This document shows, piece by piece, positions 685 to 36,231 of a stretch of 39,892 bases of DNA (its first letter is position 1; each line of letters opens with the position of its first letter). Location of the stretch: positions 1-39,892 of the IMG/VR virus record IMGVR_UViG_3300045988_061665; one strand, written 5' to 3'. The position numbers and the translations under genes were made by a program. The stretch comes from a virus. Under the pieces are notes generated by a model. It made no database searches. It was not told the DNA's origin and saw only the letters and a program-made list of their open reading frames with translations.

Positions 685-1776
685 CTATGCCGCGAATAAC
701 TCATGTACCTGTTTCATTGATTCGTCGTCGTCGATGATATAACACTCTGACGTCGTATTGATATTGCTATGGCCGAGAATCCGCTGGATATCCTTAATTG
801 ACGCGCCATGCCTAGACATATATGTCGCAAGGTATGCCCGGAACATATGTGGGTGGAGATTAAGCCCGATCAGGCGTTTGTCAGACTCCACAATCGCATT
901 AAGCATGTGCCGGATACTATCATCACTCAGCCGTGTGTATATCCCACCCTTGCGGCGGAAGTTAAGGAACAACGCCGGATCGCAATCTGTGATCTGCCTG
1001 CGCTCCGCCAGATACTCCTCCAGGTGTACCAGCGCCCGCGGTGTGAAGAATGCCGGCCGCTCCTTGCGCCCCTTACCGTATATGATGCATTTCCCGGCCC
1101 TGATATCAATATCATTAAGGTCAAGCCCTACAAGCTCACTCACACGCATTCCAGTCGCGATAAGGACCTCAACGACCGCCCTATCTCGTATAGTCTGGCA
1201 ATCACACCGGATTATCTCGGCCTGCTCATCCGTCAGTACTGTACGCAACTTTTTCTCCGTCTTAACCTTGTTGATCTTGTCCATGGGATTCTTTTTCGGT
1301 TTCCTCATCAGACTGCCGCCGTCCTCGATCAAATCCTCCGACATGATCCACCGGTAAAAAGACTGTAAGGCGTGATACTTATTATTGATTGTCGTATCGC
1401 TGTTATGCTTAACGATCTGTCTCCAGGACAGGTATGCCCTTACGTCGTTGGTCGTTATATCTGCATAATGCTTTCTGCACCACTCGAAAAAGTTTCTGAG
1501 TTCCCCGCGATAGTTCTCAATTGTCCCGGCAGTCCGTTTCTCTAGCTGCATACACCGGAGCCACATTTCCACCACGCGCGGGGTATCGTCTATATACTCC
1601 GTCGGAAGCTGCCGGCCGGCGTAATCGTCTGCTAAGATCGTCTTGTCCATCAGATTCATGTAGAGGGCTGCCTTCACCTGATTAAGCCGTTCCTGCTCCG
1701 CCCACATGTCCATACTTGCCATCAATGTTTCCATCACCGTCATAACAAAATTGTCTGTATTAATCGCTGTCTGCAT
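685..1776 (-). CDS. Tyrosine recombinase, XerC/XerD-like (second recombinase, not in the lysogeny module)
   Basis: SAM-like N-terminal domain (ENYRGELRNFFEW, YHALQSFYRW). Catalytic residues are present: ATGMRVSEL (R), GKGRKER (K), HPHMFRAY (HxxR), LGHSN (H), ECY (Y). Confidence 0.9.
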   Translation of the reverse strand: MQTAINTDNFVMTVMETLMASMDMWAEQERLNQVKAALYMNLMDKTILADDYAGRQLPTEYIDDTPRVVEMWLRCMQLEKRTAGTIENYRGELRNFFEWCRKHYADITTNDVRAYLSWRQIVKHNSDTTINNKYHALQSFYRWIMSEDLIEDGGSLMRKPKKNPMDKINKVKTEKKLRTVLTDEQAEIIRCDCQTIRDRAVVEVLIATGMRVSELVGLDLNDIDIRAGKCIIYGKGRKERPAFFTPRALVHLEEYLAERRQITDCDPALFLNFRRKGGIYTRLSDDSIRHMLNAIVESDKRLIGLNLHPHMFRAYLATYMSRHGASIKDIQRILGHSNINTTSECYIIDDDESMKQVHELFAA

Positions 1777-4015: not shown

Positions 4016-5053
4016 TTACGGTAATACTTCCGGAAAGTCTGTTATACTCATCTGCCCCTGTGCCTCCCATGTGGTCCATGGTATCCCTACATAATCCAAC
4101 ACTTCAGCCATACCCAAACCGCCCTTACATACTGGTTTCATGCAGAAATCATATTGATGCGGGTAAGAGGTTGCCATACGTTGGAATCTGTTAGGCTCTG
4201 GCTCCAGGTGTGCACCGAATGCGCAAAACATGCAGCCGGTCCGCTGCTCTCCAGTGAGGTAATACTCGCCGCATGGAGTCTGTTTGATATCGCCGTACAC
4301 AGAACAAATTTCAAGATCGTTTTCCACAACGTACCGTAGCACATCCTGTTTTGTCCAGAATCCCATAGGCTGGCTCTTGATTGTCTTGCCATCGTAGACG
4401 TTGCAGCCGGTATGTGCATATTGATGCGCCCTTTTAAAGCCTTCGTCCTGGGTGATCCCAATGTATGGATAACGTCCAGTTTCCCTTACAAACTTATCAA
4501 ATGGCTTCTTTTTCATCATTTCACAACACTTGTCCGTGGTCTCAAACGGTGCATTAATCAGAAATTGCCACTTGTCCGCCAACTTTCCAAAACTTCCTCT
4601 TTCATCTCCATTCAAGAGATAATTTCTGTGCCTGTCCGACAAATTACCATGTCGTAGCTTATACACCTTTCTGGCTGTTTCCTTGCTTATGAGCGGATAT
4701 CCATATGTAGTAATAACCTTACGGAATGTGATCCGCTTACCGTCTTTATCGACCGGATAAATTTCCCGAAATTCCCCACTGGCCTGCCGCGCAAACTTTA
4801 CAATTTCAGGGAATTCTAATCCTGTGTTGGAAAATACCGCCGGCACATCGTTTCCGACGGTCTCCCGAATCAGATGTAACAGGACCCGGCTATCCAGTCC
4901 TCCAGAATAACTCAGGTATACCATTCCTCCCCAGTTATCATACCATTCACGGATTCGTGTTTTGGTAAGCTGAAGCTTTATTTCCCATGGTAGGTATTTC
5001 CTCTGGCCGAACTGCCAGTCATTAAGTTTTAAATCGTCCTCTTTAATAAACAT
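4016..5053 (-). CDS. PAPS reductase-family (PP-loop ATPase) protein, IbrA/DndC-like
   Basis: PP-loop SYSGGLDS near the N-terminus. Cys-rich C-terminal region (CGEYYLTGEQRTGCMFCAFG). Confidence 0.8.
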   Translation of the reverse strand: MFIKEDDLKLNDWQFGQRKYLPWEIKLQLTKTRIREWYDNWGGMVYLSYSGGLDSRVLLHLIRETVGNDVPAVFSNTGLEFPEIVKFARQASGEFREIYPVDKDGKRITFRKVITTYGYPLISKETARKVYKLRHGNLSDRHRNYLLNGDERGSFGKLADKWQFLINAPFETTDKCCEMMKKKPFDKFVRETGRYPYIGITQDEGFKRAHQYAHTGCNVYDGKTIKSQPMGFWTKQDVLRYVVENDLEICSVYGDIKQTPCGEYYLTGEQRTGCMFCAFGAHLEPEPNRFQRMATSYPHQYDFCMKPVCKGGLGMAEVLDYVGIPWTTWEAQGQMSITDFPEVLP

Positions 5054-5926: not shown

Positions 5927-6316
5927 CTAATTTTTTAACTCAATCAGGGCATCGAATATATTTTTCGATAACTCATAATGTTTACAGCGCTTTGATTCAT
6001 TTTTTATAACCAGATCACCGGTTATTCCAAACATCTCCGAAACATCGGTTCGCTCCTGCTTATTTGTGCAATTTCCGTTCACATTCCATGCACAGTTAGC
6101 GCACTGTTTCTTTATCTGGATTTTTTCGGCAGCATGGCTTAGCTTGCCTAACATACAATCGCAGCCCTCGTCAACTGTACTTGACGGTATATACCGGCTG
6201 CGTCCGGTACCGTAATCCACTTCATCGTATCCATCACGGTAGGTATATGTTCGGGTTTTCCCGCAATACGGACATAATTTTTCAAGTGTCTTTCGCTGTG
6301 GTGTAGTACTATACAT
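5927..6316 (-). CDS. Cys-rich hypothetical protein (putative Zn-binding)
   Basis: CPYCG, CDC, CANCAWNVNGNC motifs. Confidence 0.6.
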   Translation of the reverse strand: MYSTTPQRKTLEKLCPYCGKTRTYTYRDGYDEVDYGTGRSRYIPSSTVDEGCDCMLGKLSHAAEKIQIKKQCANCAWNVNGNCTNKQERTDVSEMFGITGDLVIKNESKRCKHYELSKNIFDALIELKN

Positions 6317-6548
6317 TTTCCTGATCCCCTTTCCATTCGATCACCAGCTCCGGTACCGTTATACATCTCGGCTGCCCTGGCACCATCTTGATAATCCCGG
6401 CGTCTGCCATCTGCTTGAGATGCAGGTGTACACTGCTCTTGCTCTCCAGTCCTACGCCTTCCCCGATCTCTCTCACCGAGGGCGGCCAGCCGTGGGCTAT
6501 AGTGTACTGGACTATGTAGTCCCTGATCTGCTTATGACGCTCTTTCAT
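6309..6548 (-). CDS. LexA N-terminal DNA-binding-domain-only protein (no S24 peptidase domain)
   Basis: IRDYIVQYTIAHGWPPSVREIGEGVGLESKSSVHLHLKQMADAGIIKMVPGQPRCI matches the LexA winged-helix domain pattern. The ORF ends after 79 aa. Confidence 0.7.
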   Translation of the reverse strand: MKERHKQIRDYIVQYTIAHGWPPSVREIGEGVGLESKSSVHLHLKQMADAGIIKMVPGQPRCITVPELVIEWKGDQENV

Positions 6549-7323
6549 GGTCTGCCTTTCCGGCCTCGTGAAGCATCTCAGCTACGGTCTCCGCAAATTT
6601 CTTTTTCAGGCCTATATCATTGTCAACAAGTTCTTTACTTTTGATGCTCCGTTTGCTTCTGGTTTTCTCTCTGTACCTTGCCTCTGCCGCCTCGAAGTCA
6701 GCACCATTTTTTCGCATCTCCCGCCATACTGCCGCATAGGTTGAGCAGCCGTTTGTACTCCTGTCTGCTCTCGCCTCAATAAGTGGTTGAATGATCTCCT
6801 GTCTTGTCAACGCAAGTTTTGCAGCTTCCGCCGCCTGAGCTTTCTCTTCTCGTAATCTGCATTCCTCCTCAAAATTGAAAAGGATTGATTCGAAAAGATT
6901 CCTTAACTTCTCGCTCTGTGAAATGGCCTCAAGTGTTGATGGTTTTTTATCCGATCTGCCTTTACAGTCTTTTACTTCCTGCGCCAGGCAGACCCCATAC
7001 TTCCGATCCATCTTAAGATATATTTTCCGCAGCACGGTATTTAACGAATCATTCTGCTTCGGATATCTCTTCGCCAGTTCAGTACCTCTTTTATTCATGT
7101 TCATTTTCCAGATCATGCACGGGTCCGGCTCCCCTTCCTGTTTTCTGACCGGCCCTGCTGTCTTCTTTTTTTCCGCCGGAGGCTCCGACTCTGTATTTAT
7201 CATTTCCTGCAGCTCCCGTAATCTGCCGTCAAAGTATGTAATCAATTCCGTTCTGAGTTCCGCAAATTTGGAATCCATGTATACCCTGTCAACAAAGTTT
7301 TCGGGATTATATCTCTTTCCCAT
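6532..7323 (-). CDS. Hypothetical replication-module protein
   Basis: 263-266 aa ORF downstream of the replisome organizer. No NTPase motif seen. Confidence 0.6.
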   Translation of the reverse strand: MGKRYNPENFVDRVYMDSKFAELRTELITYFDGRLRELQEMINTESEPPAEKKKTAGPVRKQEGEPDPCMIWKMNMNKRGTELAKRYPKQNDSLNTVLRKIYLKMDRKYGVCLAQEVKDCKGRSDKKPSTLEAISQSEKLRNLFESILFNFEEECRLREEKAQAAEAAKLALTRQEIIQPLIEARADRSTNGCSTYAAVWREMRKNGADFEAAEARYREKTRSKRSIKSKELVDNDIGLKKKFAETVAEMLHEAGKADHERAS

Positions 7324-8110
7324 GTTCACCATCTCCCATATTCTGTAGTCCCTGCATTACCAGAGCGTCATAATCAACCTCACGCTGTGGGAACTGCTGG
7401 AACTGGTTTGTTTTCTGTTTTCCTGTCCTTCCTTTGTCCTTCTGCTCAGCTTCTTTCACCGCATTTATCACCCATTTGCGGATTGCCAAATAATGACTCT
7501 TTGCTTTATAGCCTTTCATCTCGATATACTCATCAAGAAACGTGACTGCTTTTTCCGCCATCCCCTCGCTGTACTCAGCCTGTAGTTTTCCCTTTTCATC
7601 ATCTGTTAACATAACATGTTTATATTCGCCATATTTGTGTTTTACTTTAACGTCAGGTGAGGGTGGAGCGTCAGCGGAAGCCGGTATATTATTATTAATC
7701 TTATCTATACTAATCTTATCTAATCTAATCTGAGAAGCCGAAATGGATACAGGCTGTACACATTCTGTATCCAAAGTGTATACGCCGGTCTCTGTCTGGG
7801 TCAAAAGTGCCTTTTCTTCGAGGTGGATTGTCTCCTTGTAGCGGTCCCTCTGGATGTAGTTATGGACCCACCAATGTGTGATTACACAAATCCCTTTTTC
7901 CATCTGGATTATGTAATTTTTTGCCACCAGAATCTTATAATCATCCTCACTGGCTCCAATGCTACGCATGATCTTTTTTGCATTGTCAAGGAATCCATCG
8001 TCATCCGCCCTCATACCAAGATGGAAGTAAAGCGCCTGGGCTGATTTCGGCATATCCAGGAACATATCGCTGTCAATAATTGCCTTTGAGAACATTCTCT
8101 TGTTTGCCAT
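7307..8110 (-). CDS. Phage replisome organizer (DnaD-like)
   Basis: The N-terminus MFSKAIIDSDMFLDMPKSAQALYFHLGMRADDDGF is the typical replisome-organizer N-terminal signature. The C-terminus has KYGEYKHVMLTDDE...YLAIRKW. Confidence 0.8.
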   Translation of the reverse strand: MANKRMFSKAIIDSDMFLDMPKSAQALYFHLGMRADDDGFLDNAKKIMRSIGASEDDYKILVAKNYIIQMEKGICVITHWWVHNYIQRDRYKETIHLEEKALLTQTETGVYTLDTECVQPVSISASQIRLDKISIDKINNNIPASADAPPSPDVKVKHKYGEYKHVMLTDDEKGKLQAEYSEGMAEKAVTFLDEYIEMKGYKAKSHYLAIRKWVINAVKEAEQKDKGRTGKQKTNQFQQFPQREVDYDALVMQGLQNMGDGEHGKEI

Positions 8111-13458: not shown

Positions 13459-13644
13459 TTATTCAAGGAAATACTCGATTGGAACTCCGAAGTAATCAGC
13501 AAGGATTTTAAGCTTATCAACCTTTGGCTTACTGCGACCCGATTTCCAATCGGTAAATGTTGATTTTGTAATTCCGGTATCAGCGGCAACCCGATAATCC
13601 GTTATCCCCTTTTCATCTCGAAGGGTTTCATATTTTTCATACAT
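13459..13644 (-). CDS. Cro-like XRE-family HTH repressor (early operon leader gene)
   Basis: GITDYRVAADTGITKSTFTDWKSGRSKPKVDKLKILADYFGV. Divergent from the cI-like gene. Confidence 0.8.
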   Translation of the reverse strand: MYEKYETLRDEKGITDYRVAADTGITKSTFTDWKSGRSKPKVDKLKILADYFGVPIEYFLE

Positions 13645-13655
13645 ATTTTTCCTCC

Positions 13656-13812
13656 TTTCCGAACTTTACTATTGATTTTAGTTCGGAAATCAGTTACAAT
13701 GTATTTACCAGATAAATTGTACAAGCATGGCTTGTTTTGATTTCCGAACCTTGTGTTTATTATAAAACGGATTTCAGAACTTGTCAATAGTTTTTGTACG
13801 GATTTTCAAACT
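13656..13812. promoter_or_regulatory. Immunity switch region with divergent promoters and repeated operator half-sites TTTC(C/A)GAAC(T)T
   Basis: Inverted pair tttccgaact (13656) / agttcggaaa (13680). Direct copies start at 13741, 13772 and 13803, exactly 31 bp apart. Confidence 0.55.
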
Positions 13813-13830
13813 TTTTATAGAGGTGAAATT

Positions 13831-14256
13831 ATGTATGAAATATATTGCAAGCTGAGAGATGAGCGAGGTGTCAAAGATGCCGATGTGGTTAAAGAAACAG
13901 GCATCACAAAATCCACTTTCTCCGATTGGAAAAACGGGAGAAGTAAACCAAAAAATGACAAGCTTCAAAAAATTGCCGATTACTTTGGTGTTACCCTTGA
14001 TTATTTAACAACGGGGAAAGAATCATCAGAAAAAAAAGAAATCACACTCACCCAAAAAGATGAACGTGATATTGCTAAAAAACTAGCTGGAATCATGCGG
14101 GATATCAAAACTCAAGAAGATGGCCCTTTATATTATAATGGCCAGGAAATAGATCAAACATCCTTAGAGCTACTTGAGTCCGCCTTAAACAACGCTATGC
14201 ACCAAATGAAAATTATTAATAAGGACAAATATAATCCACACAAAAACAAAAAGTAG
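13831..14256 (+). CDS. cI-like/ImmR-type XRE-family repressor
   Basis: MYEIYCKLRDERGVKDADVVKETGITKSTFSDWKNGRSKPKNDKLQKIADYFGV. No S24 domain. Followed by an ImmA-type protease gene. Confidence 0.8.
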   Translation: MYEIYCKLRDERGVKDADVVKETGITKSTFSDWKNGRSKPKNDKLQKIADYFGVTLDYLTTGKESSEKKEITLTQKDERDIAKKLAGIMRDIKTQEDGPLYYNGQEIDQTSLELLESALNNAMHQMKIINKDKYNPHKNKK

Positions 14257-14267: not shown

Positions 14268-14714
14268 TTGAATAAAAAAATAAGCCGTCTGATTGCCTAT
14301 TATGAAAGAACATATGGCACCAGGGATCCTTTTAAAATTGCAAGGTATTTAGGAATTTATGTAGGATTATATCCATTGGGAAATGTTGCTGGAAATTATC
14401 GCTACCTTGAACACGCTAAATGGATTTTTTTGAACTCTGAAATTCAAGACGAAATCTTTCTTCGAGTAGTAATGGCTCACGAATTAGGTCATGCTGTTTT
14501 ACACTGGAAAGAAAACTGTTGTTTTATGGCTCACAAAACGCTACTATTAACGTCTAAAATCGAAAGACAAGCAAATCTATTTGCTGCTTATCTGCTTATA
14601 GATGATGCTATGCTACAAGACTATGTCGGGTGTACACAAGAACAATTCTGTATCTGTACGGGATTTCCTGACGAGCTTATAGAACTACGTCTTAAAAATT
14701 ATGATTGGAGGTAA
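14268..14714 (+). CDS. ImmA/IrrE-family zinc metalloprotease (anti-repressor protease)
   Basis: HELGH motif (VVMAHELGHAVLH). TTG start after aggtgg. Confidence 0.85.
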   Translation: MNKKISRLIAYYERTYGTRDPFKIARYLGIYVGLYPLGNVAGNYRYLEHAKWIFLNSEIQDEIFLRVVMAHELGHAVLHWKENCCFMAHKTLLLTSKIERQANLFAAYLLIDDAMLQDYVGCTQEQFCICTGFPDELIELRLKNYDWR

Positions 14715-14719
14715 CCATC

Positions 14720-15005
14720 TTGAAGTACAAAGAATTTTTAGAGTAACTGGAAAAGAACCTTACCGGCTATCAAACTTTTATGTTTAAGGCCATGCAATTT
14801 TAGCGAGTCAAAAATGCCAAGCGGCAGAAAAAAGACCGCTGGCGAGATGTGGAAAAAAGCAATGGAGACATTATATAATAATTTGAGGCGAGAACTCAAA
14901 TCAGACATGGCTTCGGCCTGGATCTCTTACATTGAAAAACATGAGATTTTGGAATCTGTCAACGAGAGTATCAATGAGTTGGATTTTTATGATGACGCAG
15001 CATAG
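14720..15005 (+). pseudogene. Possibly decayed gene: a coding-like frame interrupted by TAA and TAG, then a +1 shift into a 63-aa ORF (14814..15005)
   Basis: TTG at 14720, 8 nt after ggagg. LKYKEFLE*LEKNLTGYQTFMFKAMQF*RVKNAKRQKKDRW..., then MPSGRKKTAGEMWKKAMETLYNNL... in another frame. Confidence 0.3.
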
Positions 15006-15031
15006 ATATAATTCTTAATTGGAGGGTTTTT

Positions 15032-15958
15032 ATGAGTATAAAAGGAACTACTAAAGAACTTTTTGTCGGAAAAGAAGAAATTAATCTTATTACTTTTATC
15101 GGGAATAAGATAACAATTCCTTATTCTGTTATGAAGGGGGTTAATTATTCCTATGCGTCTCGACTTAAAACCGGATTTCTGCTATTTAAAAGAAATGATA
15201 ATACTAATATACGCTTTGATTTTGGATACAGCGTTAATGAAAAAATCACTCAGACTATCAATTTTATTAATGAACATCAGCCTTGGCTTGAAACAAAAGA
15301 ATTTGATATTAACGAGTTCAAAAACAATCGTTCTGTCTCATTGACGCCAATTTCAGGTTATAAAGAATTAGGTTTATCATCGTTAGCCTTGTCTATTCAC
15401 CAAAGAGTAGATGGCAGCGTTTATTTTAATTCTGACACATCAAAACTTTACACTATTTCATCGTACGAATGGAACGGGCCAGAATATAACGTGATTACCA
15501 ATACCACCGCCAACGAAACCGGAAAAAATACCACCAAAAAGCAGGGAAAAGCACTGAAAATTGGTGCCGGGGCGTTATTGGGAAATTTGGTAGCGCCTGG
15601 TGTTGGCACGCTTGTTGGTGCTGCTATGGGTGCAGGCAGCAAAGGAAAAGAAAAAACGAAGGGACATAAAACGACTAACTCTCAACAAATAGAAAAAAAA
15701 GTTGAAAATAGTACCGTCGCTTTTCTCACCCTTATCAGTATTGATACAAAAAAGGTGTATAAAATTTCCTTTAAATGCAACACAAAATTGGATGCCACCC
15801 TAAGGTGTTTCGACATAGTAACACCAGATACAAAAGAGTCTATTGTAATAGATACCCAAAAATCATTAGAAGGCATCAAGGCATTAAAGGAATTGCTCGA
15901 TATGGGGGCTATCACCCAAGAAGAATTTAATAATAAGAAAACACAACTACTTCAATAG
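15032..15958 (+). CDS. SHOCT-domain protein with a glycine-zipper hydrophobic segment (lysogeny-module cargo; candidate exclusion/defence factor)
   Basis: The C-terminus LEGIKALKELLDMGAITQEEFNNKKTQLL is SHOCT-like. Central GAGALLGNLVAPGVGTLVGAAMGAG. The gene is visibly AT-rich relative to its flanks. Confidence 0.75.
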   Translation: MSIKGTTKELFVGKEEINLITFIGNKITIPYSVMKGVNYSYASRLKTGFLLFKRNDNTNIRFDFGYSVNEKITQTINFINEHQPWLETKEFDINEFKNNRSVSLTPISGYKELGLSSLALSIHQRVDGSVYFNSDTSKLYTISSYEWNGPEYNVITNTTANETGKNTTKKQGKALKIGAGALLGNLVAPGVGTLVGAAMGAGSKGKEKTKGHKTTNSQQIEKKVENSTVAFLTLISIDTKKVYKISFKCNTKLDATLRCFDIVTPDTKESIVIDTQKSLEGIKALKELLDMGAITQEEFNNKKTQLLQ

Positions 15959-15964
15959 CATGTA

Positions 15965-15997
15965 AAAAGCCCCTGTGCTGGTAACACAGAAGCTTTT
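15965..15997 (+). terminator. Rho-independent terminator after the SHOCT gene
   Basis: aaaagcccctgtg ctggtaa cacagaagctttt. Confidence 0.6.
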
Positions 15998-16106
15998 CAC
16001 ATAATACTCTTACCGGAATGCTCCGATAGATATAATCATCTTAATCACTTGAATTATATCATTTCTGGAGCGTCCTGGCAAGGGGCGTATTTTTTATACC
16101 CAAAAA

Positions 16107-16124
16107 AGTTGTGATGTCACAACT
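16107..16124. promoter_or_regulatory. Palindrome upstream of the integrase start (agttgtga tg tcacaact)
   Basis: 8-bp inverted arms with a 2-nt spacer, 23 nt before the int ATG. Confidence 0.3.
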
Positions 16125-16146
16125 ACAACACGAAAGGAATGATATT

Positions 16147-17310
16147 ATGGCAAAAGCAAAGAAATTACCCTCCGGATCCTGGAGGTGTCTGGCCTACAGC
16201 CACACTGAACGGATCCTGGACGAGAAGACAGGAAAATGGAAGGATAAGAGGGTCTACGAATCCTTTACGAGCGATGACCCCAGCCCCCGAGGGAAGAAAG
16301 AGGCGGAATACGCCGCCGCTGAATTTCAGCTTAACAAAAAAGCTGCTACAGCGAAAAAACAGCATGCAAATAGAAACAAGAAGCTGACCGAAGCAATAGA
16401 CGAATACATAGAATCCAGGGTGCCTCTAAAACGATCTCCTACAACGATACAGGATTACCGCTGTATCCAGCGTAACGGCTTCCAGGACCTCATGCAGACA
16501 CCCCTGAAGGATATTGACGAGATTATCATGCAGGAGGCTATCAACGTCGAGGCACGACGTAAGTCCAATAAGCGGAGCAAGACTCCTCAACCGATCTCTG
16601 CAAAACGTCTGAAAAATGAATGGATCCTGATAAGTGCAGTCCTCCATAAGTATTGTAAGGATTTTGATTTCAGTGAGATCGAGCTCCCGCAGGTTACACC
16701 GCGCGTCGTAGAGCTGCCGCCGGCGCAAAAAGTTCTGGACATCATACGTGGCACAGACATAGAACTGCCGGTTCTCCTGGCTGCCTGGTTGTCCTTCTCG
16801 ATGTCAGAGGTCCGCGGCCTCACAAAATCAAAATCTATTCGGGGCAACTGTATCATGATCCGGGAGGTGGTCGTTGACGTTGACGGCCAGCCGATCAGAA
16901 AGGATATCGCCAAAAACCCTACACGTAACCGCCGTCACCGGATCCCGCCATACATTATGTCCCTGATCGATCAGGTGGAAGGCGACGCACTCGTACCGAT
17001 CAGCGGCAAGGCGCTGTATCATCGCTGGATTAAGCTACAGAACGACAACGGCATGGATCATATTACCTTCCACGATCTCCGGCACCTCAATGCTTCGATT
17101 ATGGCCCTCCTGCGGGTGCCAGATAAATATGCAGAAGAGCGCGGCGGATGGGATAATGATAAGGTCATGAAGCGGGTGTACATGCAGACATTTTCGGAAG
17201 AGAGGGAACGTTTTGATAATCTCATAGATGGGTATTTTGATGATCTTTTAGGAGGTGGCGCAGATGCCATGCAACATGAAATGCAACACAAAGAAAAAAG
17301 AGCCTTGTAA
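16147..17310 (+). CDS. int: Phage integrase, tyrosine recombinase family
   Basis: MAKAKKLPSGSWRCLAY arm-binding-type N-terminus. Catalytic SMSEVRGL (R), HDLRH (HxxR) and VYMQ (Y). Adjacent to the attP-like site. Confidence 0.9.
   Translation: MAKAKKLPSGSWRCLAYSHTERILDEKTGKWKDKRVYESFTSDDPSPRGKKEAEYAAAEFQLNKKAATAKKQHANRNKKLTEAIDEYIESRVPLKRSPTTIQDYRCIQRNGFQDLMQTPLKDIDEIIMQEAINVEARRKSNKRSKTPQPISAKRLKNEWILISAVLHKYCKDFDFSEIELPQVTPRVVELPPAQKVLDIIRGTDIELPVLLAAWLSFSMSEVRGLTKSKSIRGNCIMIREVVVDVDGQPIRKDIAKNPTRNRRHRIPPYIMSLIDQVEGDALVPISGKALYHRWIKLQNDNGMDHITFHDLRHLNASIMALLRVPDKYAEERGGWDNDKVMKRVYMQTFSEERERFDNLIDGYFDDLLGGGADAMQHEMQHKEKRAL
17269..17292 (+). repeat. Tandem arm-type repeat pair ATGCAACA(T/C)(G/A)AA, left of the att core (inside the int 3' end)
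   Basis: atgcaacatgaa atgcaacacaaa. Confidence 0.5.
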
Positions 17311-17327
17311 TTACAAGACTCTTTACG

Positions 17328-17352
17328 AGCGCGAGACGGGGATCGAACCCGT
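17328..17352 (-). other. attP core candidate: mimic of a tRNA 3' end (T-arm plus 3' acceptor strand)
   Basis: Minus strand: acggg ttcgatc cccgt ctcgcgc t. No matching 5' acceptor strand, so this is a fragment and not a gene. Lies 18 nt after the int stop. Confidence 0.5.
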
Positions 17353-17441
17353 AAAGGCAAAATCCCTGAAACCCGCATAAATACGGGAATGCTGATAAAC
17401 ACTACACTTCCGGGATATCAAAAATGAGTCATATCACTCAA

Positions 17442-17500
17442 ATTTGATAGTAAAAACATCATATTTGATAGTGCTATGCAACACAAAAATGCAACACGAA
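17442..17500 (+). repeat. Arm-type repeats right of the att core: 2x atttgatagt and 2x atgcaacac(a/g)aa
   Basis: atttgatagt at 17442 and 17463. atgcaacacaaa at 17476 and atgcaacacgaa at 17489. Confidence 0.5.
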
Positions 17501-17512
17501 AATCACTACTTA

Positions 17513-17533
17513 GGCGGCCCATTGCGGACCGCC
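17513..17533 (-). terminator. GC-rich hairpin just after the endolysin stop (candidate end of the late operon)
   Basis: Minus strand: ggcggtcc gcaat gggccgcc, 8 bp including one G-U. U-tract weak. Confidence 0.45.
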
Positions 17534-17543
17534 CTTAATACAT

Positions 17544-18323
17544 CTAAAACTGCCCCGGCCCCTGTGCCCCGCTGCTATCTGTCACATACAGCGCGCACTC
17601 CAACGGGTGCCCAGCCCGCGGTTCAAAGTAATACCACTGGCCGCCGATCTCCTGCCAATTGGTCAGGGCGTAACCATCAGGGTTAAAATAATACTTATGA
17701 TGGTTGATGATCTGCCAGCAGGACTTGTAATAGCTGCGGTCAGTATCAGCATACCACCAGCCATTATTGTCATGGTGCCATCCGATCTCATACTTCGGCG
17801 TATCCACAATAGACCAGTCTGGCCGGCCATAGCCGTCAATGCGGCTGTTGCTCAGACTATACTCCTTAGCACAGACTGCGCCTCCATTGGGGATCACCTC
17901 GGCCCCGTCGCTGGTGTTGCCCTCAATGGTCCGCACCTTGGTCAAGGTTACCTCTGTGACTATGCCAGTGTGGTTGATTCTACTACTGCCCCGGAAGAAT
18001 ATCTGATCTCCCGGCTGAGGATCCGTCTTGTGGTACTGGCCTCTTGCCTTATAATACTGTGCTGACGTCGGGGTATAGGCGCTGAAACCACCGCCTATAA
18101 GCTGCTGAGCGGCCACGCGGCCAAATGCCTGCACCATACACCAGTCCACGAACATATCACACCATGGCTGCCCCTGAAGCGATGGGTATAAGTCTCTGGC
18201 ATACTTAGTGTAGTTGTTGCTGCCGGCATTGGCTGTCTTGCTGTCCAGCTGGCTGTTGCTCCTCTTTTCCAGATATCCCAATTCCGATCTGGCTATGGCA
18301 ATTACTTTTTCTTTTCCTGTCAT
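17544..18323 (-). CDS. Endolysin: N-terminal CHAP-type amidase/peptidase plus C-terminal choline-binding-type cell-wall repeats
   Basis: NNYTKYARDL...GQPWCDMFVDWC (catalytic Cys context), INHTGIV (His). Repeats GWHHDNNGWWYAD, HHKYYFNPDGYALTNWQEIGGQWYYF. ggagg RBS before the ATG at 18323. Confidence 0.85.
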   Translation of the reverse strand: MTGKEKVIAIARSELGYLEKRSNSQLDSKTANAGSNNYTKYARDLYPSLQGQPWCDMFVDWCMVQAFGRVAAQQLIGGGFSAYTPTSAQYYKARGQYHKTDPQPGDQIFFRGSSRINHTGIVTEVTLTKVRTIEGNTSDGAEVIPNGGAVCAKEYSLSNSRIDGYGRPDWSIVDTPKYEIGWHHDNNGWWYADTDRSYYKSCWQIINHHKYYFNPDGYALTNWQEIGGQWYYFEPRAGHPLECALYVTDSSGAQGPGQF

Positions 18324-18336
18324 GTCTGCCTCCAAC

Positions 18337-18364
18337 AAAAAAGGCCCAGGATCACTCCCAGGCC
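18337..18364 (-). terminator. Terminator-like hairpin followed by U6 between holin and endolysin
   Basis: Minus-strand RNA: ggccuggg agugau ccugggcc uuuuuu. The 2 G-U pairs make it strand-specific. Confidence 0.4.
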
Positions 18365-18456
18365 CGTAAAAAGGTTTTGATGATATAACCGTTGCGATAT
18401 CGCAACAGCTCCGGACCTTACCCCTCCGGCGGGAGATGCGCGGATCACCTCCAGCG

Positions 18457-18945
18457 TTACCGGCCGCCACCCTGATAGTCTGTATTGTCGATCTTATCTT
18501 TCAACACCGCAATATATCTAAGCAGCCATTCAGGCACCGCAGCGCCCATTCTGCCGGCATTCTCGATGATAGACAACAACTCATTGAGCAAGTACCATAC
18601 TGTCACCAAAAGCCCGAAAAACGCGCCCGCAGGAATCCCTAATCCCAGCGTTCCGGATACCGTGGCAATCACATAATCAACCACCATAGCCACGGCGATA
18701 ACACAGAGATAACCGACCTTCTTAATGATCCCTTTCGCGCCCCGCTTACTGCTCCAGCCATAATCAGGATCAGCCGGATGGTCAATCGCTTCTGTCTTAC
18801 TTGCCAGCATACCGGTTATGTAGTCCACAACCATCATGGCTGCCAGCGCACACAGAACCGGAAACAGGATCCCTAACTTATTACTCAGGTAGGCACCGGC
18901 TGCCGCCAGTACCCCCTGAATCCCGATAACATATTCTCTTTTCAT
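18457..18945 (-). CDS. Holin (phage_holin_4 / toxin-secretion-lysis holin type)
   Basis: Multiple TM segments. MVVDYITGMLASK ... WYLLNELLSIIENAGRMGAAVPEWL motif. Confidence 0.8.
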   Translation of the reverse strand: MKREYVIGIQGVLAAAGAYLSNKLGILFPVLCALAAMMVVDYITGMLASKTEAIDHPADPDYGWSSKRGAKGIIKKVGYLCVIAVAMVVDYVIATVSGTLGLGIPAGAFFGLLVTVWYLLNELLSIIENAGRMGAAVPEWLLRYIAVLKDKIDNTDYQGGGR

Positions 18946-26635: not shown

Positions 26636-29431
26636 CTATCCCTCCGTAACCATTCTTACACCTACACGCTGTTTCTCCTGATTGTTCGCTTCATAGACAG
26701 CCCGAGCAAACCGCTGCCCGTTAACAATTAAGTCAATCTGCATAGGCCGCCTATTGCCTCCCTCCCCCATATACTTCGCCATGACATTATCAAGAGCTTG
26801 TTCTATGGTCGACAGAGGAGATACCACCTCTGTTTCCCGATTATTATCTCCCAGGATCGCGGCAAACTCACCAGCGCGCGGCGGAACCACCGTACCTGTT
26901 GCGAGGCGCGGCATTCTGTAACTGCTCACATCTCCAGGGCTATAAGCATTATATGGGCTGTATGATCCGCTCGAATAAGCCCCCGCCGATGAACGCTTAC
27001 CAGCATTAACGGCTACCATAGCCGCACCTATTCCAAGGGCAATTGCTCCAGCTATCAATGCCGCTTTCGCTGCTCCCCCTGTCGCTGCTCCTAATGCAAC
27101 AGCCAAAATAGTAATTGCGGAGGCGGCCGCCATTATTGAACTTATTACCTTTTCTGGAACAGTCATGTTATCCCAGTTTTTATAAATCTCATATACTGCC
27201 CCAAGCAGAATACCAATTGCCGAGGCTATGCCCAAATATGCCAATTGTGTTGTATCAAGATTTTTATTTAATAATTTCAAAATACCAATAAAACCATTTG
27301 CACCCGAAAGTACGTCAATAATATTCTTGACCTTTTCGACAAATTCGATAGCTTTCCAAGCCATGAAAAAACCTGCTACAGTTACAGCCGCAAATCGAAT
27401 TTCTTCTTCATGTTCTGATATCCAGTCAGAAAACTTTGTAAGCCATTCTGTAACTTTTTTCAATGCCTCTATAATTATTTTTCCAGTCCATTCACCGAAT
27501 GGCTGCAAGAAGTCTTCCCACAGCCATATGGCTAATGGTTTCAGTGCTTCTAATATACTATTTAAAGCTTTTAATGCCGCAGAAATTAGATCAAACGCTG
27601 CCGGAATACCATTCTCTATCCCCCATTTAGCTATAGGAAGAAGAATATCTGTTAGGAGCCAAAGCAAGACATCACCTATTTTACTTACGATTGGCCTTAA
27701 GCTCACCAGTACCTCATCAAAAGAAGACAATAACGGGTAAAAATCTAAGCCGGCAGACCAATCCCTGATTGCTTCAGAAGCTTCACGGAAAAATCCAGTT
27801 ACCTCAAGCACCAGGTCACCCAGATGTCTCATAATTGACACGCCCAGATCTCCGCTTGTCCAGGCTTTATCCAACTGATCGCACAAATTAGCTGCTGTAA
27901 ATGCGAGGTTCGCGAAAGTAATCAGCAGATCGTCTGTTATTTTCTGTCCATAGCTCTCATTCTTCCATACCTGTAAAAATGATGTTCCGACGTCCATGGC
28001 AAGGTTTTTCATACTGTTGAGAGCCGCATGGACAGCCTCATTTACTTCTGGACCATTCTCCAGCCAGGATTGCTTCATCGGGTCAAACAGATCAGAAAAG
28101 ACTCTTTTTACTACATCTGCAAAATCTTTAATATCATTCTCGATCTCCACCGTTTCAAACATCTGATCCGGTGTTGGACCTATATAGCCATCTTCTGATT
28201 TTTCCTGTGCCTGGATCAGATCATCGAAGGAAAAAGCTAACTTTTGATTCAGCTTCTCCTTCTTTTTCAGTTCCGAATTACTGTCTTTTAATGCCTCTCC
28301 ATAATTTTCCTCAACATCTACAGCCTTCACAAATGTTGCTTTTCCGGTTAAGGCTGCTACAAGCTGTCCCGCGTAGGTTGCCCCCGTCGATAGAAGATCA
28401 ATCATTTCCTTTAACGCTGGGGCTGCGGCATCAAGAGCGGGAGCAAATGCTGTAGCAAAGCTGTTTTTCAGTCGGGTATTGGCAGAAACGAGCATGGAAA
28501 TACTTTTGTTCGTCTCGTCCGAATACTGGGCTAGATTTTCGAATCCCTCTTTAGCTGCCTTTATGGCCGCTCGCATTGCCATACGGATCAGCATCAGCTT
28601 AAACATATTGGATAACTTTAAAATACTTTTGGTAAGCGGGATTGCTGTCTTATTTGTAGCAGCCAGCGTTTTATTCATTTTTTTGCCTGATGAATCTACC
28701 TTCTTCTGAACGGTTCTAGTCCCTTCCAGTTCCTTCTTATAAGAATTCAGTGCGACTATTGCTTTCTGCAATTCTCCATAGGTCTTATCATATTCAGGAT
28801 CTCCGAAATAAGATCCTGATTTCTCAAGAGAATACAGATGCTCCTTCAACAGGTCAATCTTATCCACCAGCGCTATTACACTTTGATTTCCAGAATTGAA
28901 CGCACCCATAATTACATGGCCTGTTGACGATGCAATAGTTGGTATGTCTGATATTGTCCGCTTGAGGATTTCAAGTGTCTTCTGTAACATGGTAGGCCCC
29001 TGCTTTGCTTCTTCAAAAGCCTTATTCTCCGCAGCGGCGGCCTCTCTGGCTGATTCTTCAATAGTCTTATTTCTGGCAATTATTTCGTCAACATCGTTAC
29101 CATAAATATCATATCGTTTTCCGTCATCCGGAATGGAAGAAGGCGAAGCGTTATTGTTTGTGATCGTTCCTGTAAATGTTGCAGCCTTTTCTTTGTTCAG
29201 GCGTTCTACTTCTTCTCGTGCCTTCTTCGCTGACTCCGCGACGGTATCAATATCTTTCGCGGTGGAGGCGGCCGTGTTACCTGCTCCGGTAAATCCTCCA
29301 TCCATTTTTTTAGACAAGTCTTCGATTAATCCTGAAAGCCTTTCAACTGCTTTTGTTAGCGTACTCATTCCAGCATCGAAGCCTTCTGTATTAACCTTTG
29401 TGTCAAATTTTAAGCTTCCATCAGCCGCCAT
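26636..29431 (-). CDS. Tape measure protein
   Basis: 931 aa, alpha-helical and coiled, with Gly/Ala-rich hydrophobic segments. Positioned after the chaperone genes. Confidence 0.9.
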   Translation of the reverse strand: MAADGSLKFDTKVNTEGFDAGMSTLTKAVERLSGLIEDLSKKMDGGFTGAGNTAASTAKDIDTVAESAKKAREEVERLNKEKAATFTGTITNNNASPSSIPDDGKRYDIYGNDVDEIIARNKTIEESAREAAAAENKAFEEAKQGPTMLQKTLEILKRTISDIPTIASSTGHVIMGAFNSGNQSVIALVDKIDLLKEHLYSLEKSGSYFGDPEYDKTYGELQKAIVALNSYKKELEGTRTVQKKVDSSGKKMNKTLAATNKTAIPLTKSILKLSNMFKLMLIRMAMRAAIKAAKEGFENLAQYSDETNKSISMLVSANTRLKNSFATAFAPALDAAAPALKEMIDLLSTGATYAGQLVAALTGKATFVKAVDVEENYGEALKDSNSELKKKEKLNQKLAFSFDDLIQAQEKSEDGYIGPTPDQMFETVEIENDIKDFADVVKRVFSDLFDPMKQSWLENGPEVNEAVHAALNSMKNLAMDVGTSFLQVWKNESYGQKITDDLLITFANLAFTAANLCDQLDKAWTSGDLGVSIMRHLGDLVLEVTGFFREASEAIRDWSAGLDFYPLLSSFDEVLVSLRPIVSKIGDVLLWLLTDILLPIAKWGIENGIPAAFDLISAALKALNSILEALKPLAIWLWEDFLQPFGEWTGKIIIEALKKVTEWLTKFSDWISEHEEEIRFAAVTVAGFFMAWKAIEFVEKVKNIIDVLSGANGFIGILKLLNKNLDTTQLAYLGIASAIGILLGAVYEIYKNWDNMTVPEKVISSIMAAASAITILAVALGAATGGAAKAALIAGAIALGIGAAMVAVNAGKRSSAGAYSSGSYSPYNAYSPGDVSSYRMPRLATGTVVPPRAGEFAAILGDNNRETEVVSPLSTIEQALDNVMAKYMGEGGNRRPMQIDLIVNGQRFARAVYEANNQEKQRVGVRMVTEG

Positions 29432-33234: not shown

Positions 33235-34425
33235 TTACTGTTTAATCAATGTTACCTCTTTATCAACAGCTGCTTCTGCTACCACTACGGTCTCAGTAAT
33301 CGTTCCATAGCCTGCCTTCTTAATCTTTGCCGGGTACGATCCTTCACGCAGGTTAAACTCTGCAATACCAGTGGAAGAGGTCTTCTTTCTCGATCCGTTG
33401 ACGTCCACCACTGCACCAGCGACAGCTGCCGGAGCATCTGCATTATCCTTAACCGTAAAGGTTACCTTCTGAGTAGTTGCCGGAGTAGCTGGCTCTAGGT
33501 ATGCAAACGGACAGCCCAAACGATCCGTGTCCATACGTGTAGCTGGATTCGGGAGCGCCCACCCCATGCGGAATACAATACGCAATGCAACCATGTCCTG
33601 CTGAGCCAGATTATACGTAATCTCTTTTGTAATCGGGTCCTGGATAACACCCTGGTCAAGAATCTTAACTGTGACATCCTGTCTGATCGAGTAAACCGCC
33701 TGCTTGAAGTCTCCTACAATCAGCTGGGCAATAGCATTATCATAAGCCCCATTCTGTGGAAAATACAGCGGTGCCCCGTCCAATGCATAGTTGGTGGATC
33801 CCTGCATATCGCTCTTAAAGATCAGGCTGCCGTCCGTGGCCCTGATCCCTCTTAACTTTGCTCTCATGCTCATAGACGCCAGGGCTCCGGTTGCCATGAA
33901 CCCGTCTTCCTCTACTTTGGAAATAACGCCGCCTTCTCCAAGTAACAGATTGTAATAATCCGGATTGGATCCTACTGCTACATTGTTTCCTGCCTGTCTG
34001 GCAAGGGTGATAATATCATTCGGCCAGTTTGCCGGGCGGTTGATTCCGAAGATAATAGCGCTGTCAACTCGCTGCCCGATTGCCTCATTCACCCTCGGTG
34101 TAATTTCTCCAAAGATATCAAACTCTGCATCGTCCAGCACCGCCTCCGGAATCGGAACAATAACTGCCAGTTCTGCGGCATTCATGTAGACGTTATCCCA
34201 CGCTTGCCTAGTTGTCTGCTTCATGCCGGTATCGCCGTCTACCCAGTAGGCAGTCGGGAGGAAATCGAGTACCCTCATGCGAGTCTGGTTACTGGTCATG
34301 TTCGGAAGTTTCCGCGCCATACTCATAAATGTGGACTGCTTCGGTGCGTCCTGAAAAATTGTTGAAATTACCTGTTCGCGAATAATGGCCTCCGCGTCAG
34401 ATCTGCTTGTAATGTGTACTGCCAT
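33235..34425 (-). CDS. Major capsid protein with a C-terminal Ig-like/beta-sandwich extension
   Basis: Position after the scaffold gene; 396 aa. The C-terminal TFTVKDNADAPAAVAGAVVDVNGSRKKTSSTGIAEFNLREGSYPAKIKKAGYGTITETVVV resembles a decoration-type domain. Confidence 0.85.
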   Translation of the reverse strand: MAVHITSRSDAEAIIREQVISTIFQDAPKQSTFMSMARKLPNMTSNQTRMRVLDFLPTAYWVDGDTGMKQTTRQAWDNVYMNAAELAVIVPIPEAVLDDAEFDIFGEITPRVNEAIGQRVDSAIIFGINRPANWPNDIITLARQAGNNVAVGSNPDYYNLLLGEGGVISKVEEDGFMATGALASMSMRAKLRGIRATDGSLIFKSDMQGSTNYALDGAPLYFPQNGAYDNAIAQLIVGDFKQAVYSIRQDVTVKILDQGVIQDPITKEITYNLAQQDMVALRIVFRMGWALPNPATRMDTDRLGCPFAYLEPATPATTQKVTFTVKDNADAPAAVAGAVVDVNGSRKKTSSTGIAEFNLREGSYPAKIKKAGYGTITETVVVAEAAVDKEVTLIKQ

Positions 34426-34437: not shown

Positions 34438-34971
34438 CTATTCTTTTCCTAAAATGCTTCTAAGCGCTTCATTCGCTCTTGTCTTTGTATCATCTATCGC
34501 CTGACCGCCAGGGCCAGGAGTTGGTGCAACCACCCGTGGTATCTGTGTGTCCTGAAACAGATAGGAATTATCCTTTTTTACCGCCTCAATAGCCGCTTTG
34601 ATATCAGACTCCTGATTCTTACTCCCCTTTAACTTATCTACATCCAGAAACGGCATGACTGCTTTTAAATCTCTGGGCTTATATCCTTCGGCTGTGGCCT
34701 TCAGAAGGTCGTTAAAATCCCGATCAGCCAGTTGCCTTTTATACTCTGCCTCTTTGGTTGCAAGGTCATTTGTAAGTGTTGTCACTTTAGTCTGAAGCTC
34801 TGAGATATTCACACCTTCAAAACTTTTCAGCGTTGTCTGTGCCGTCTCTAACTGTCCTTTGTAATTATCCCGTTCCTGTTTGATGGCCTCAATATCATTT
34901 CCATTCTCGGCCATAATGCTGTCTACCTGTTCTTTTGTCAGTCCCATGTCCTCTAAAAATTTACGTTTCAT
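34438..34971 (-). CDS. Scaffolding protein (GP20-like)
   Basis: MKRKFLEDMGLTKEQVDSIMAENGNDIEAIK..., coiled coil. Positioned before the capsid gene. Confidence 0.75.
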   Translation of the reverse strand: MKRKFLEDMGLTKEQVDSIMAENGNDIEAIKQERDNYKGQLETAQTTLKSFEGVNISELQTKVTTLTNDLATKEAEYKRQLADRDFNDLLKATAEGYKPRDLKAVMPFLDVDKLKGSKNQESDIKAAIEAVKKDNSYLFQDTQIPRVVAPTPGPGGQAIDDTKTRANEALRSILGKE

Positions 34972-35046
34972 CCTGCTCCTTTCCCGCTACGCTTTTATAC
35001 GGGGTTGCTTCCCATGCGCTGGTAGTTTTACGCCGTGCCGGGCAAT

Positions 35047-36231
35047 TTATTTCTTTGCTATTCGCATTCTCTCCCTCTGTTCCGGGAGCCGCATTTGTTT
35101 TGAAAACTCTGTATATGTTTTATCCGTTAATCTCAACCTGCACTTAGCCGCCGTAATGTCGTCCGAATCAACTTCTGCCTCCTGGAGTAACTTAATATCC
35201 TGTTTCTGCTTTCGAATCGTGCGTTCAAGCCTCCGCTGATACTGCAATGCTCCGTATGTATCGTATTCCCTGCCGCGGTAAATCCTTTTTTCATTCTCTT
35301 TCCGGTTCTGCTCCTCTAACCACTCATCAGAGTACTTACGTTTACTGATCCCCGGAAGAAACGGAAACTTAATATGATAGCAATTGATACCGGCGAATCC
35401 CAGCAGTTCACCCTCTCCGCAGATGGTCCGCATTTCCTCCGAGCTGTAAACCTTTCCTTGCCAGCTTTGGTGATTTAGGTATCCCGTACCGGTGTTACGG
35501 GCTCCCATATGCCAGTCTACTTCCCAGTGATCCGTTCCCAGCTCTTCCGCATTCTTATTACTTACCTGCTTCGTCATCTGTGCCACTCCGGTCATCACCG
35601 CCCGCCTGGCCGCCACCTCGATACGGTCTGACTTGCCAGATGCATAATCCACGGTGCGAATCCCACTGTCCGTCATTTCGTCGATCACGTCACCGATCGC
35701 CTGATTATAGGTTTTGGCTCCTGTAGTAATCCCTAGCATGGCCCTGTCCAGACTCTGCTCCAGGTACTCCGAAAGCGGTGTGAATGCCTTCTTTCCAGCA
35801 CCCATAGGCACATTAAAACCGGTGGTCTGAGTAATATTCTCCATCGGCCGCAGCGTGTCCTTTGTCTGCCGCCTGGCCGCGTCTACTGCCTGTTGCAGCC
35901 ATTGATTATCCTCATAGCGCTGATAATCCTTTCCTGCCTCTTCGTAAATTGTCTTATTACGCACGTAATCCGACCGGGCAGCCTGCTCATAGATATCATC
36001 AATTTGTAGATCAGCTTCCTTGATTGCCTCCCCGATCAGCTGCTTAATCCGTGTCTTACTCTCACCGATTGCAGTGAGTCGCACCAGCAGCCAGTCAATA
36101 ACCGGTGTAATCTGTGCTGCCTCCTTAATGCGATCCACGATCTCGGACATAATAGACAGCTCCAGCGCCGTCATAGTGCGCTCCAATGGCTTCGGCAGCT
36201 TCTCCAATTCATCAGGCGTCATCAATCTCAC
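35047..36231 (-). CDS. Minor capsid / head morphogenesis protein
   Basis: Position after the portal gene. N-terminus LPKPLERTMTALELSIMSEIVDRIKE is typical of phage minor capsid protein 2-type. Confidence 0.75.
   Translation of the reverse strand: MRLMTPDELEKLPKPLERTMTALELSIMSEIVDRIKEAAQITPVIDWLLVRLTAIGESKTRIKQLIGEAIKEADLQIDDIYEQAARSDYVRNKTIYEEAGKDYQRYEDNQWLQQAVDAARRQTKDTLRPMENITQTTGFNVPMGAGKKAFTPLSEYLEQSLDRAMLGITTGAKTYNQAIGDVIDEMTDSGIRTVDYASGKSDRIEVAARRAVMTGVAQMTKQVSNKNAEELGTDHWEVDWHMGARNTGTGYLNHQSWQGKVYSSEEMRTICGEGELLGFAGINCYHIKFPFLPGISKRKYSDEWLEEQNRKENEKRIYRGREYDTYGALQYQRRLERTIRKQKQDIKLLQEAEVDSDDITAAKCRLRLTDKTYTEFSKQMRLPEQRERMRIAKK

Follow-up and report, generated by a model that had tools for sequence, protein, structure and literature searches.

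A glycine-zipper SHOCT protein in the repressor-integrase cargo slot of a temperate phage is a candidate membrane-acting anti-phage protein

The RexAB proteins of phage lambda and gp30/gp31 of the mycobacteriophage Sbash are expressed from the prophage and their genes adjoin the immunity repressor gene, rexAB being co-transcribed with cI. Both are two-protein systems with polytopic membrane proteins, and their membrane component is proposed to collapse the potential upon superinfection. In the Lactococcus phage Tuc2009 the gene for Sie2009, a small membrane-associated exclusion protein, is located between int and the repressor gene; the protein combines a hydrophobic segment at the N-terminus with a tRNA_anti-like OB domain behind it (Pfam E 3.5e-11). 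In the Streptococcus thermophilus phage TP-J34 the lysogeny module includes the gene for the superinfection-exclusion lipoprotein Ltp; the gene is transcribed from the prophage, and the protein prevents the injection of DNA (PMC3952083). Here we analyse a 308 amino acid (aa) protein, termed X in the following, that is encoded in the lysogeny block of the IMG/VR virus record IMGVR_UViG_3300045988_061665 (39,892 nucleotides (nt); this whole stretch of DNA is referred to as the window). X is best explained as the product of an accessory (moron-type) gene of a temperate phage, which occupies the cargo slot between the repressor/ImmA genes and the integrase gene.

Compared with RexAB and with gp30/gp31 of Sbash, X consists of one polypeptide chain, in which a single short stretch is hydrophobic, and no homology to these systems was found. 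The likeness to Ltp lies in the slot, which is filled by an Ltp-family protein in a phage with a related integrase. X itself differs from Ltp: it has no signal peptide, lipobox or sequence similarity to Ltp and is predicted to face the cytoplasm, and with no Pfam match to the Lipoprotein_Ltp domain it falls outside the Ltp-type class. The OB domain type of Sie2009 likewise fills the slot of X in sister phages, and one such protein carries the N-terminal domain of X. X was also considered as a homologue of Sie2009 (Tuc2009 orf2), which was rejected, since X has neither a tRNA_anti-like match nor an N-terminal hydrophobic segment.

X is encoded by a single open reading frame (ORF) on the plus strand (15032..15958), with a GGAGG ribosome-binding site at 15021-15025. 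The ratio of non-synonymous to synonymous substitution rates (dN/dS) against homologues is 0.11-0.20, which corresponds to purifying selection; gene-wide positive selection was not seen. The gene is thus real and is kept by selection. An AlphaFold2 model of X made with 70 homologues has a mean predicted local distance difference test score (pLDDT) of 77.8. The N-terminal domain, termed PH1 (residues 1-95, 15032..15316, plus strand), is modelled with seven strands and a helix (66-82) at a pLDDT of 89-96 for residues 1-90; the confident beta-sandwich with its helix cap comprises residues 1-82. A Foldseek search of the PDB revealed that PH1 resembles single PH domains (5umr: TMt 0.70, root mean square deviation (rmsd) 2.8 Å; 6l1r: TMt 0.65, rmsd 2.4 Å). 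According to the model, the N-terminal domain has a PH-like fold; the first-pass annotation of this DNA had considered such a fold possible and had proposed the Foldseek comparison that recovered it. None of the bPH Pfam models matched X at E<=0.1.

The core beta-domain (residues 96-262, 15317..15817, plus strand) is seen in the match to phrog_4431 and in the AlphaFold2 model. It is split by an insertion into two halves (residues about 96-160 and 217-262; 87-160 and 217-258 by the modelled structure), which consist of strands and a helix (251-258). Five residues of the core domain (Q124, Y145, W147, G149 and E225) are invariant in all 70 homologues, and C249 and D254 are conserved in at least 90% of them. 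In a second model, of a 240-aa family member without PH1, the beta-domain is split in the same way, the insertion is again unstructured and the helices of SHOCT are present. The topology of the core domain in the models would agree with a PH fold, as it comprises seven strands and a helix at the C-terminal end. When the short-form model was compared with the PDB by Foldseek, no match had an E below 1, and therefore we do not claim the core domain as a proven PH fold; its compatibility with PH domains rests on the topology and on the name of the Pfam family PF27000 "PH_gly_zipper", which matches homologues weakly. The top Foldseek matches in the PDB to the full X model were the eukaryotic tandem-PH histone chaperones Rtt106, Spt16-M and Pob3-M (E 3e-4 to 1e-3). 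This is a likeness at the level of the fold only (6-11% identity, TM 0.3-0.46, rmsd above 10 Å), and a functional inference from it is not justified. A sequence-profile search of the PDB with X gave a chance match only (E 0.26), and a structure look-up in BFVD returned nothing below 1e-3.

The C-terminus of X carries a SHOCT domain (residues 282-307, 15875..15952, plus strand; Pfam PF09851, E 4.6e-9), the only Pfam match of X above the cut-off (36.2 bits against a gathering cut-off of 27, with a bi-helical model of 28 positions). Two helices are modelled in this part of the protein (268-290 and 296-307), and the SHOCT model is matched by 66 of the 70 homologues. The domain had been recognised at the C-terminus before, and the Pfam result confirms it; its description as an oligomerisation domain is overstated, as the experiments reported in the SHOCT-defining paper gave no support for oligomerisation (PMC3581485). 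Later comparative work proposed SHOCT as an anchor to the inner membrane leaflet (PMC11237479).

The glycine-zipper hydrophobic segment (residues 177-202, 15560..15637, plus strand) contains the string GAGALLGNLVAPGVGTLVGAAMGAG noted earlier and lies in the insertion of the core domain (residues 161-216, 15512..15679), which is modelled at low confidence (pLDDT about 31). All three parts of the layout given in the first-pass annotation, the soluble N-terminal region, the zipper and SHOCT, are present, but the zipper is located inside the second beta-domain and is not a linker between soluble parts. G180, G184, G192, G196 and G200 are placed at i+4 spacing around P189-G190, with 94-100% conservation of each, and the glycine and proline positions of the zipper altogether are 93-100% conserved in the 70 homologues. 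In 63 of these the zipper has a length of 25-26 residues. Both flanks are Lys-rich and basic; their net charges in the homologue set are +3.4 and +2.9. The Kyte-Doolittle(19) peak of 1.57 is borderline for a membrane segment, and insertion of the zipper into the membrane is a prediction. The strands flanking the insertion belong to one domain, so that both ends of the segment would have to be on one side of the membrane. The N-terminus of X, MSIKGTTKELFVGKEE..., has no hydrophobic leader, signal peptide or lipobox cysteine. From the entry and exit on the same side, together with the missing signal peptide, we infer an orientation of X towards the cytoplasm, with attachment to the membrane through the zipper, which is predicted to form a re-entrant or in-plane hairpin at the inner membrane face.

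A zipper of the GxxxG type is common to X and the DUF1269, Gly-zipper_Omp, Gly-zipper_YMGG and C19orf12 families. The scores of X remain under the gathering thresholds (DUF1269: 21.1 against 26.9 bits; Gly-zipper_YMGG: 14.2 against 28.9 bits), and the match to C19orf12 at the zipper is below threshold as well; among the 70 family members DUF1269 is matched in 47 and Gly-zipper_Omp in 22. X differs from the Gly-zipper families in the placement of the zipper, which is an insertion in a predicted cytoplasmic beta-domain and not an N-terminal lipoprotein anchor. A match of X to the NCBIfam model pdsO was rejected, as it scored 26 bits against a cut-off of 152 and covered the low-complexity zipper region alone.

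Comparison with other IMG/VR loci delimits a cargo cassette (14721..15954, plus strand) that comprises X and a remnant of an upstream gene. At the left edge, nucleotide similarity to loci L101-L103 begins at 14721, the ImmA tail being 49% identical. At the right edge, similarity to loci L126-L128, which carry other cargo, resumes at the X stop codon (15954). X is 97.7% identical to its counterpart in L101 at the nucleotide level, compared with 49% for the ImmA tail and 64% for int, and in L126-L128 an integrase 97% identical to that of the window is accompanied by unrelated genes in place of X. These locus comparisons show that X behaves as a recombination cassette exchanged between phages. 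L101 and L102 are 94-100% identical in the flanks and 72-86% identical in the 3′ two-thirds of X; over this part (window equivalent 15351..15950) dS is about 1 and dN 0.07-0.17, which indicates a replacement by a diverged allele inside the X gene. The 63-aa ORF upstream of X (14814..15005, plus strand) is what is left of the 3′ end of a 104-aa gene (phrog_7823, E 2.2e-11, profile positions 47-102 of 103), of which L101-L103 have a full copy; the window frame upstream of the ORF carries stop codons. The remnant, orf63, is located right at the left recombination joint of the cassette. The interval 14715-15997 given earlier thus also holds this truncated ORF, and the 308-aa protein is indeed a single ORF.

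About 60 IMG/VR loci with relatives of the window integrase were surveyed for the genes between HTH/M78 (the helix-turn-helix (HTH) repressor and the ImmA-like M78 protease) and int. The slot holds 41 unrelated cargo families in these loci. This diversity, together with the exchange of X as a cassette, agrees with the first-pass annotation, in which the slot was held to be a typical place for lysogen-expressed cargo. Pfam matches among the cargoes include Lipoprotein_Ltp (E 2.9e-78), the tRNA_anti-like OB domain of the Sie2009 type in two proteins, Mrr_cat, SIR2_2, PemK/MazF, Uma2, HSDR_N, DUF3644 with an EC042_2821 nuclease-like domain, DUF4041-T5orf172 and bacterial PH domains. With PADLOC, PD-Lambda-1 (E 4.5e-160), PDC-S02, S03, S19, S25 and S57 and a ThsA-like SIR2 protein were identified. 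With this content the slot is a hotspot for defence and exclusion genes.

Two of the slot proteins have N-termini that are 41-42% identical to PH1 of X (E 2e-20 and 8e-19). One is a PH1-FtsK_gamma-Mrr_cat nuclease protein (L131 3910..4824); the other combines PH1 with a transmembrane segment and a tRNA_anti-like OB domain and has a SAPI domain in addition (L129 3354..4841). Both are encoded in the same repressor-integrase slot. PH1 is optional in the family of X: it is absent from members of 239-263 aa and most family members lack it, the shorter ones having a helix or a zinc ribbon in its place. By its occurrence on these two slot proteins and its replacement in the shorter members, PH1 is a portable module joined to different presumptive effectors. 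In a further locus, a 175-aa slot protein without SHOCT (L138 2542..3069) has a similar Lys-flanked glycine-zipper insertion (hhalign probability 75% over 31 columns), and may be a distant relative of the X core domain.

Altogether, 238 homologues of X were detected. In an exhaustive profile search the number of representative clusters was 109 with a limit of E<=1e-30 and rose to 331 with E<=1e-10; the family has about 100-300 clusters at 50% identity. A profile scan of genome contigs found mostly SHOCT-only matches and added a few members from Bacilli. The nearest named homologue is from [Clostridium] symbiosum (P0001, 97% identity). X matches phrog_4431 (E 1.1e-30, residues 100-260) and phrog_888 (E 2.9e-19, residues 129-307), so the family is already catalogued, without a function ("unknown function"). 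Weak or faint precomputed matches to PF27000 PH_gly_zipper are listed for the homologues P0011, P0022, P0045, P0048, P0105 and P0115, which are 36-52% identical to X; the nearest homologues, P0001-P0010, list SHOCT alone. PADLOC-DB v2.0.0 gave no family for X at E<=0.1, a check that the first-pass annotation had suggested. With the 70 homologues it gave scattered weak matches, most frequently to LeoB (seven members, best E 4.7e-4), and stronger isolated matches in single homologues, for example to PDC-M09B (E 7.4e-7). Pfam, NCBIfam and PADLOC searches of X and Pfam and PADLOC searches of the 70 homologues thus revealed no known family or defence system beyond SHOCT, and a full-text literature search on SHOCT or glycine zippers with prophages or defence found no functional study of X-type proteins. 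Both results agree with the earlier statement that this architecture is not a described defence system. Among the cultured phages in INPHARED there was no nucleotide match to the module, and three partial protein matches only (Dulem virus 35, Javan235 and CDMH1).

Annotated contigs and a local hidden Markov model search yielded 21 distinct types of the family at <=90% identity, which are found almost only in prophages or prophage remnants. An HTH gene is located upstream on the same strand in 16 of these types and an M78 gene in 10, an integrase gene follows downstream in 14 (11 tyrosine, 3 serine), and 13 types have both HTH and integrase. The X gene typically starts 16-63 nt after M78, and these short gaps suggest an operon. 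Some members are placed differently: X is found without M78 in L015 and L110, the Enterococcus hirae member is located beside the endolysin at the opposite end of the prophage, and gp21 of phage CDMH1 is an inserted gene in the tail module. The allele P0115 (L005, L006 and L008, about 6001..7500) is followed by integrase fragments of 78 and 147 aa, and the element looks like a decayed prophage that has retained the gene. P0115 is widespread, occurring in 98 index blocks of the assembly collection, and its element also has DUF4143 and IS110 genes.

X is most likely transcribed together with the repressor in the lysogen. Its operon position and the defence-rich slot point to an anti-phage role, the most probable of the functions considered, to which overall we give somewhat less than an even chance; the estimate is divided about evenly between abortive infection and exclusion as candidate modes. 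In this role X would protect the lysogen against other phages at the cytoplasmic membrane. PH1, the core domain and SHOCT would be located in the cytoplasm, tethered to the inner membrane face by the zipper. In the model that we favour, X is a single-protein sensor-effector in which the soluble domains control the packing of the zipper. The PH-like domain or the core domain would sense a cue from the incoming phage, upon which the glycine zippers would pack helix to helix, possibly aided by SHOCT. Packing could then either perturb the membrane (abortive infection) or block the entry of DNA from the inside (superinfection exclusion). A more far-reaching and more doubtful proposal is that proteins with the beta-domain, glycine zipper and SHOCT constitute a new single-gene anti-phage family of gut Firmicutes prophages, in which a cytoplasmic domain would govern a short zipper element at the membrane, with PH1 as a portable sensing or targeting module for varied effectors, namely the zipper-SHOCT core, the Mrr nuclease and the Sie2009-type OB domain.

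Several observations weigh against an anti-phage role at the membrane. The zipper is only borderline hydrophobic (Kyte-Doolittle 1.57), and AlphaFold2 leaves it unstructured in two independent models (pLDDT about 31). Gene-wide purifying selection, like the invariant residues of the core, is better explained by a conserved partner than by a fast-evolving phage target. The Gram-positive phage exclusion proteins that have been shown experimentally face outwards, whereas X is predicted to face inwards, and X and the 70 homologues have no consistent match to a PADLOC model. Many genes of the slot are unrelated to defence, such as those for a LytTR response regulator, for choline-binding proteins and for secreted lipoproteins, so that the association with defence genes is suggestive only. 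The sample of loci is biased towards viral contigs and integrase-anchored searches.

The conservation of the core would also fit a host target, and X could be a lysogenic-conversion factor for the host envelope, acting as a sub-membrane scaffold or stress protein, for instance against bile, bacteriocins or holins. Slot cargoes without a defence signature are in line with this, and SlyB is an example of a glycine-zipper protein of the envelope. The E. coli glycine-zipper lipoprotein YfgH is described in a preprint as outer-membrane-stabilising under envelope stress (10.64898/2025.12.22.696046), and for SHOCT and SHOCT-like domains it has been proposed that they anchor diverse domains to the inner leaflet and occur together with PspA/band-7 membrane-stress systems (PMC11237479; PMC3581485). 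We nevertheless regard an envelope function as unlikely, given that the family is found almost only in prophages and their remnants and not in stress operons, that PH1 also occurs on a nuclease and on a protein carrying a Sie2009-type OB domain, and that no psp, lia or band-7 neighbours were seen in the surveyed loci.

The linkage of X to the lysogeny genes could point to a part of the lysogeny switch instead, with X as a membrane-tethered modulator of ImmA or the repressor (induction) or of the integrase (excision) that perhaps couples the state of the membrane to induction. In 13 of the 21 types X is in tight linkage with HTH, M78 and integrase genes of the same orientation; it starts shortly after M78 (16-63 nt) and shares its low GC content and low GC content at third codon positions (GC3) with cI and ImmA. 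This linkage does not hold in all phages: X moves apart from its neighbours (97.7% identity against flanks of 49% and 64%), phages with a 97% identical integrase carry other cargo, and X occurs without M78 (L015, L110), beside tyrosine or serine recombinases, by the endolysin in E. hirae and in the tail module of CDMH1. It also persists in the remnant with a broken integrase. A switch function is thus improbable in our view, and an obligate role as a partner of ImmA was rejected on the basis of the cassette behaviour and the occurrence without M78. The least probable reading is that X acts as a membrane toxin for the phage's own benefit, be it as an addiction module or kill switch or as an auxiliary lysis or holin-like factor. 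Pore-forming peptides and toxins, VacA among them, can contain glycine zippers, and a MazF-type toxin is present in the same slot of another phage. For the type VI secretion effector Tde1 a glycine-zipper motif is needed for translocation across the membrane (PMC10240207). X, however, has no conserved antitoxin-like partner, as orf63 is present only in the lineage of the window and is truncated here, and in prophage order the gene is distant from the lysis cassette and on the opposite strand. Its large conserved soluble domains are moreover atypical of holins.

If the anti-phage role of X is borne out, the novelty would lie in a defence or exclusion function of this architecture and in PH1 being used as a module. 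Prophages of gut Lachnospiraceae are abundant and their lysogen-expressed genes have hardly been studied. For one phage group the cargo slot is now precisely delimited, with edges at 14721 and 15954 in the window and with known exclusion and defence genes in sister phages; the company of known defence genes in this slot makes X a concrete and cheaply testable candidate for a new membrane-acting anti-phage protein. The shared PH1 gives a starting point for finding out what targets or triggers such proteins. An anti-phage X would give SHOCT, a widespread domain, a tested biological role; should X have no anti-phage effect, the family would still mark a conserved membrane-associated function in lysogenic conversion.

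The window is a complete temperate phage genome that is circularly permuted, and its host probably belongs to the Lachnospiraceae. No tRNA gene was found in the window. The early genes are on the minus strand below about 13400, and the structural and lysis genes are on the minus strand as well: large terminase (37620..38879), portal (36228..37607), major head protein (33235..34425), tape measure (26636..29431), holin (18457..18945) and endolysin (17544..18470). Between the early and the structural and lysis genes lies a short lysogeny block on the plus strand with the order cI-like repressor, ImmA/M78, 63-aa ORF, X and tyrosine integrase. The first-pass annotation had correctly placed X between the repressor/protease pair and int and in the same orientation as the repressor. 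The repressor is the first gene of this co-oriented lysogeny operon (13753..14256; Pfam HTH_3 E 5e-11, Phage_CI_repr E 5.6e-5; it also matches PHROG transcriptional regulator and repressor families) and may truly start at the ATG near 13831; a cro-like HTH gene (13459..13644, minus strand) diverges from it. It is followed by an ImmA-like M78 metalloprotease with a HELGH motif (14268..14714, plus strand; Pfam Peptidase_M78 E 4.4e-14, phrog_87 metallo-protease E 2.7e-23). The tyrosine integrase (16111..17310, plus strand; Pfam Phage_integrase E 6.4e-7, phrog_1 E 8e-28) likely starts at the ATG at 16147. Downstream of it a gap of 233 nt (17311..17543) leads to the endolysin on the opposite strand; because of this arrangement we read the window as an excised or circular form of the phage. 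Similarity to other integrase blocks ends at 17351-17374, which is a likely position of attP.

An AT-richer block at the cargo had been noted earlier. Such a block exists, but it is not specific to the cargo and extends over cI and ImmA. The region 13500-16000 has a GC content of 0.359, the lowest of any 2.5-kb stretch, compared with 0.456 for the window. The values for the single genes are 0.345 (cI), 0.353 (ImmA), 0.355 (X) and 0.494 (int). GC3 is 0.26-0.32 for cI, ImmA and X, and int, lysin and holin have a GC content of 0.49-0.54 and a GC3 of 0.57-0.63, with a step in composition at the border between X and int. The entire immunity region is thus compositionally distinct, not the cargo alone. 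AT-richness as a sign of a separate acquisition of X was rejected, because cI and ImmA are equally AT-rich.

The spacer between X and int contains two hairpins. The one just 3′ of the X stop codon (15960..16002, plus strand; −14.5 kcal/mol, z −3.07 against shuffled sequences) has a UUUU tail only, which is partly within the stem, and was not called by a terminator scan. Two of its four inner-stem pairs are changed on both sides among six sequences, and the consensus RNA fold of the spacer shows almost no covariation (term 0.17, six sequences). The second is a canonical terminator-like hairpin followed by T6 (16070..16088, plus strand; annotated as far as 16098), which the scan did call. It is contained in a stretch of about 45 nt upstream of int (about 16055-16100, ATTATATCATTTCTGGAGCGTCCTGGCAAGGGGCGTATTTTTTATACCC) that is almost invariant in six loci, the int genes of which are only about 64-90% identical at the nucleotide level. 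Both hairpins belong to the int-side block that begins at 15954 and is common to phages with other cargo, and are therefore not X's own. The terminator that the first-pass annotation had attributed to X is thus a weak hairpin with a poor U-tract, and a terminator of X itself was rejected in favour of a conserved right border of the slot. An Rfam search of 14600-16300 gave no match. A sigma-70-like promoter with an 11/12 match (TTGCCA-17-TATAAT with TG) is present on the minus strand (16081..16053), directed antisense toward the cargo gene.

Outside the lysogeny module, a second tyrosine-recombinase gene (685..1776, minus strand; phrog_1, E 1.6e-46) is located among the early and late genes, distant from the module. 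The early-region ORF 4016..5053 (minus strand) matches phage phosphoadenosine-phosphosulfate reductase-like proteins (phrog_424, E 3e-49). In the head-gene region, an Rfam GP20-b cis-regulatory RNA motif (34988..35044, minus strand; 53.7 bits against a gathering score of 36.2) is found between the ORFs 34438..34971 and 35047..36231.

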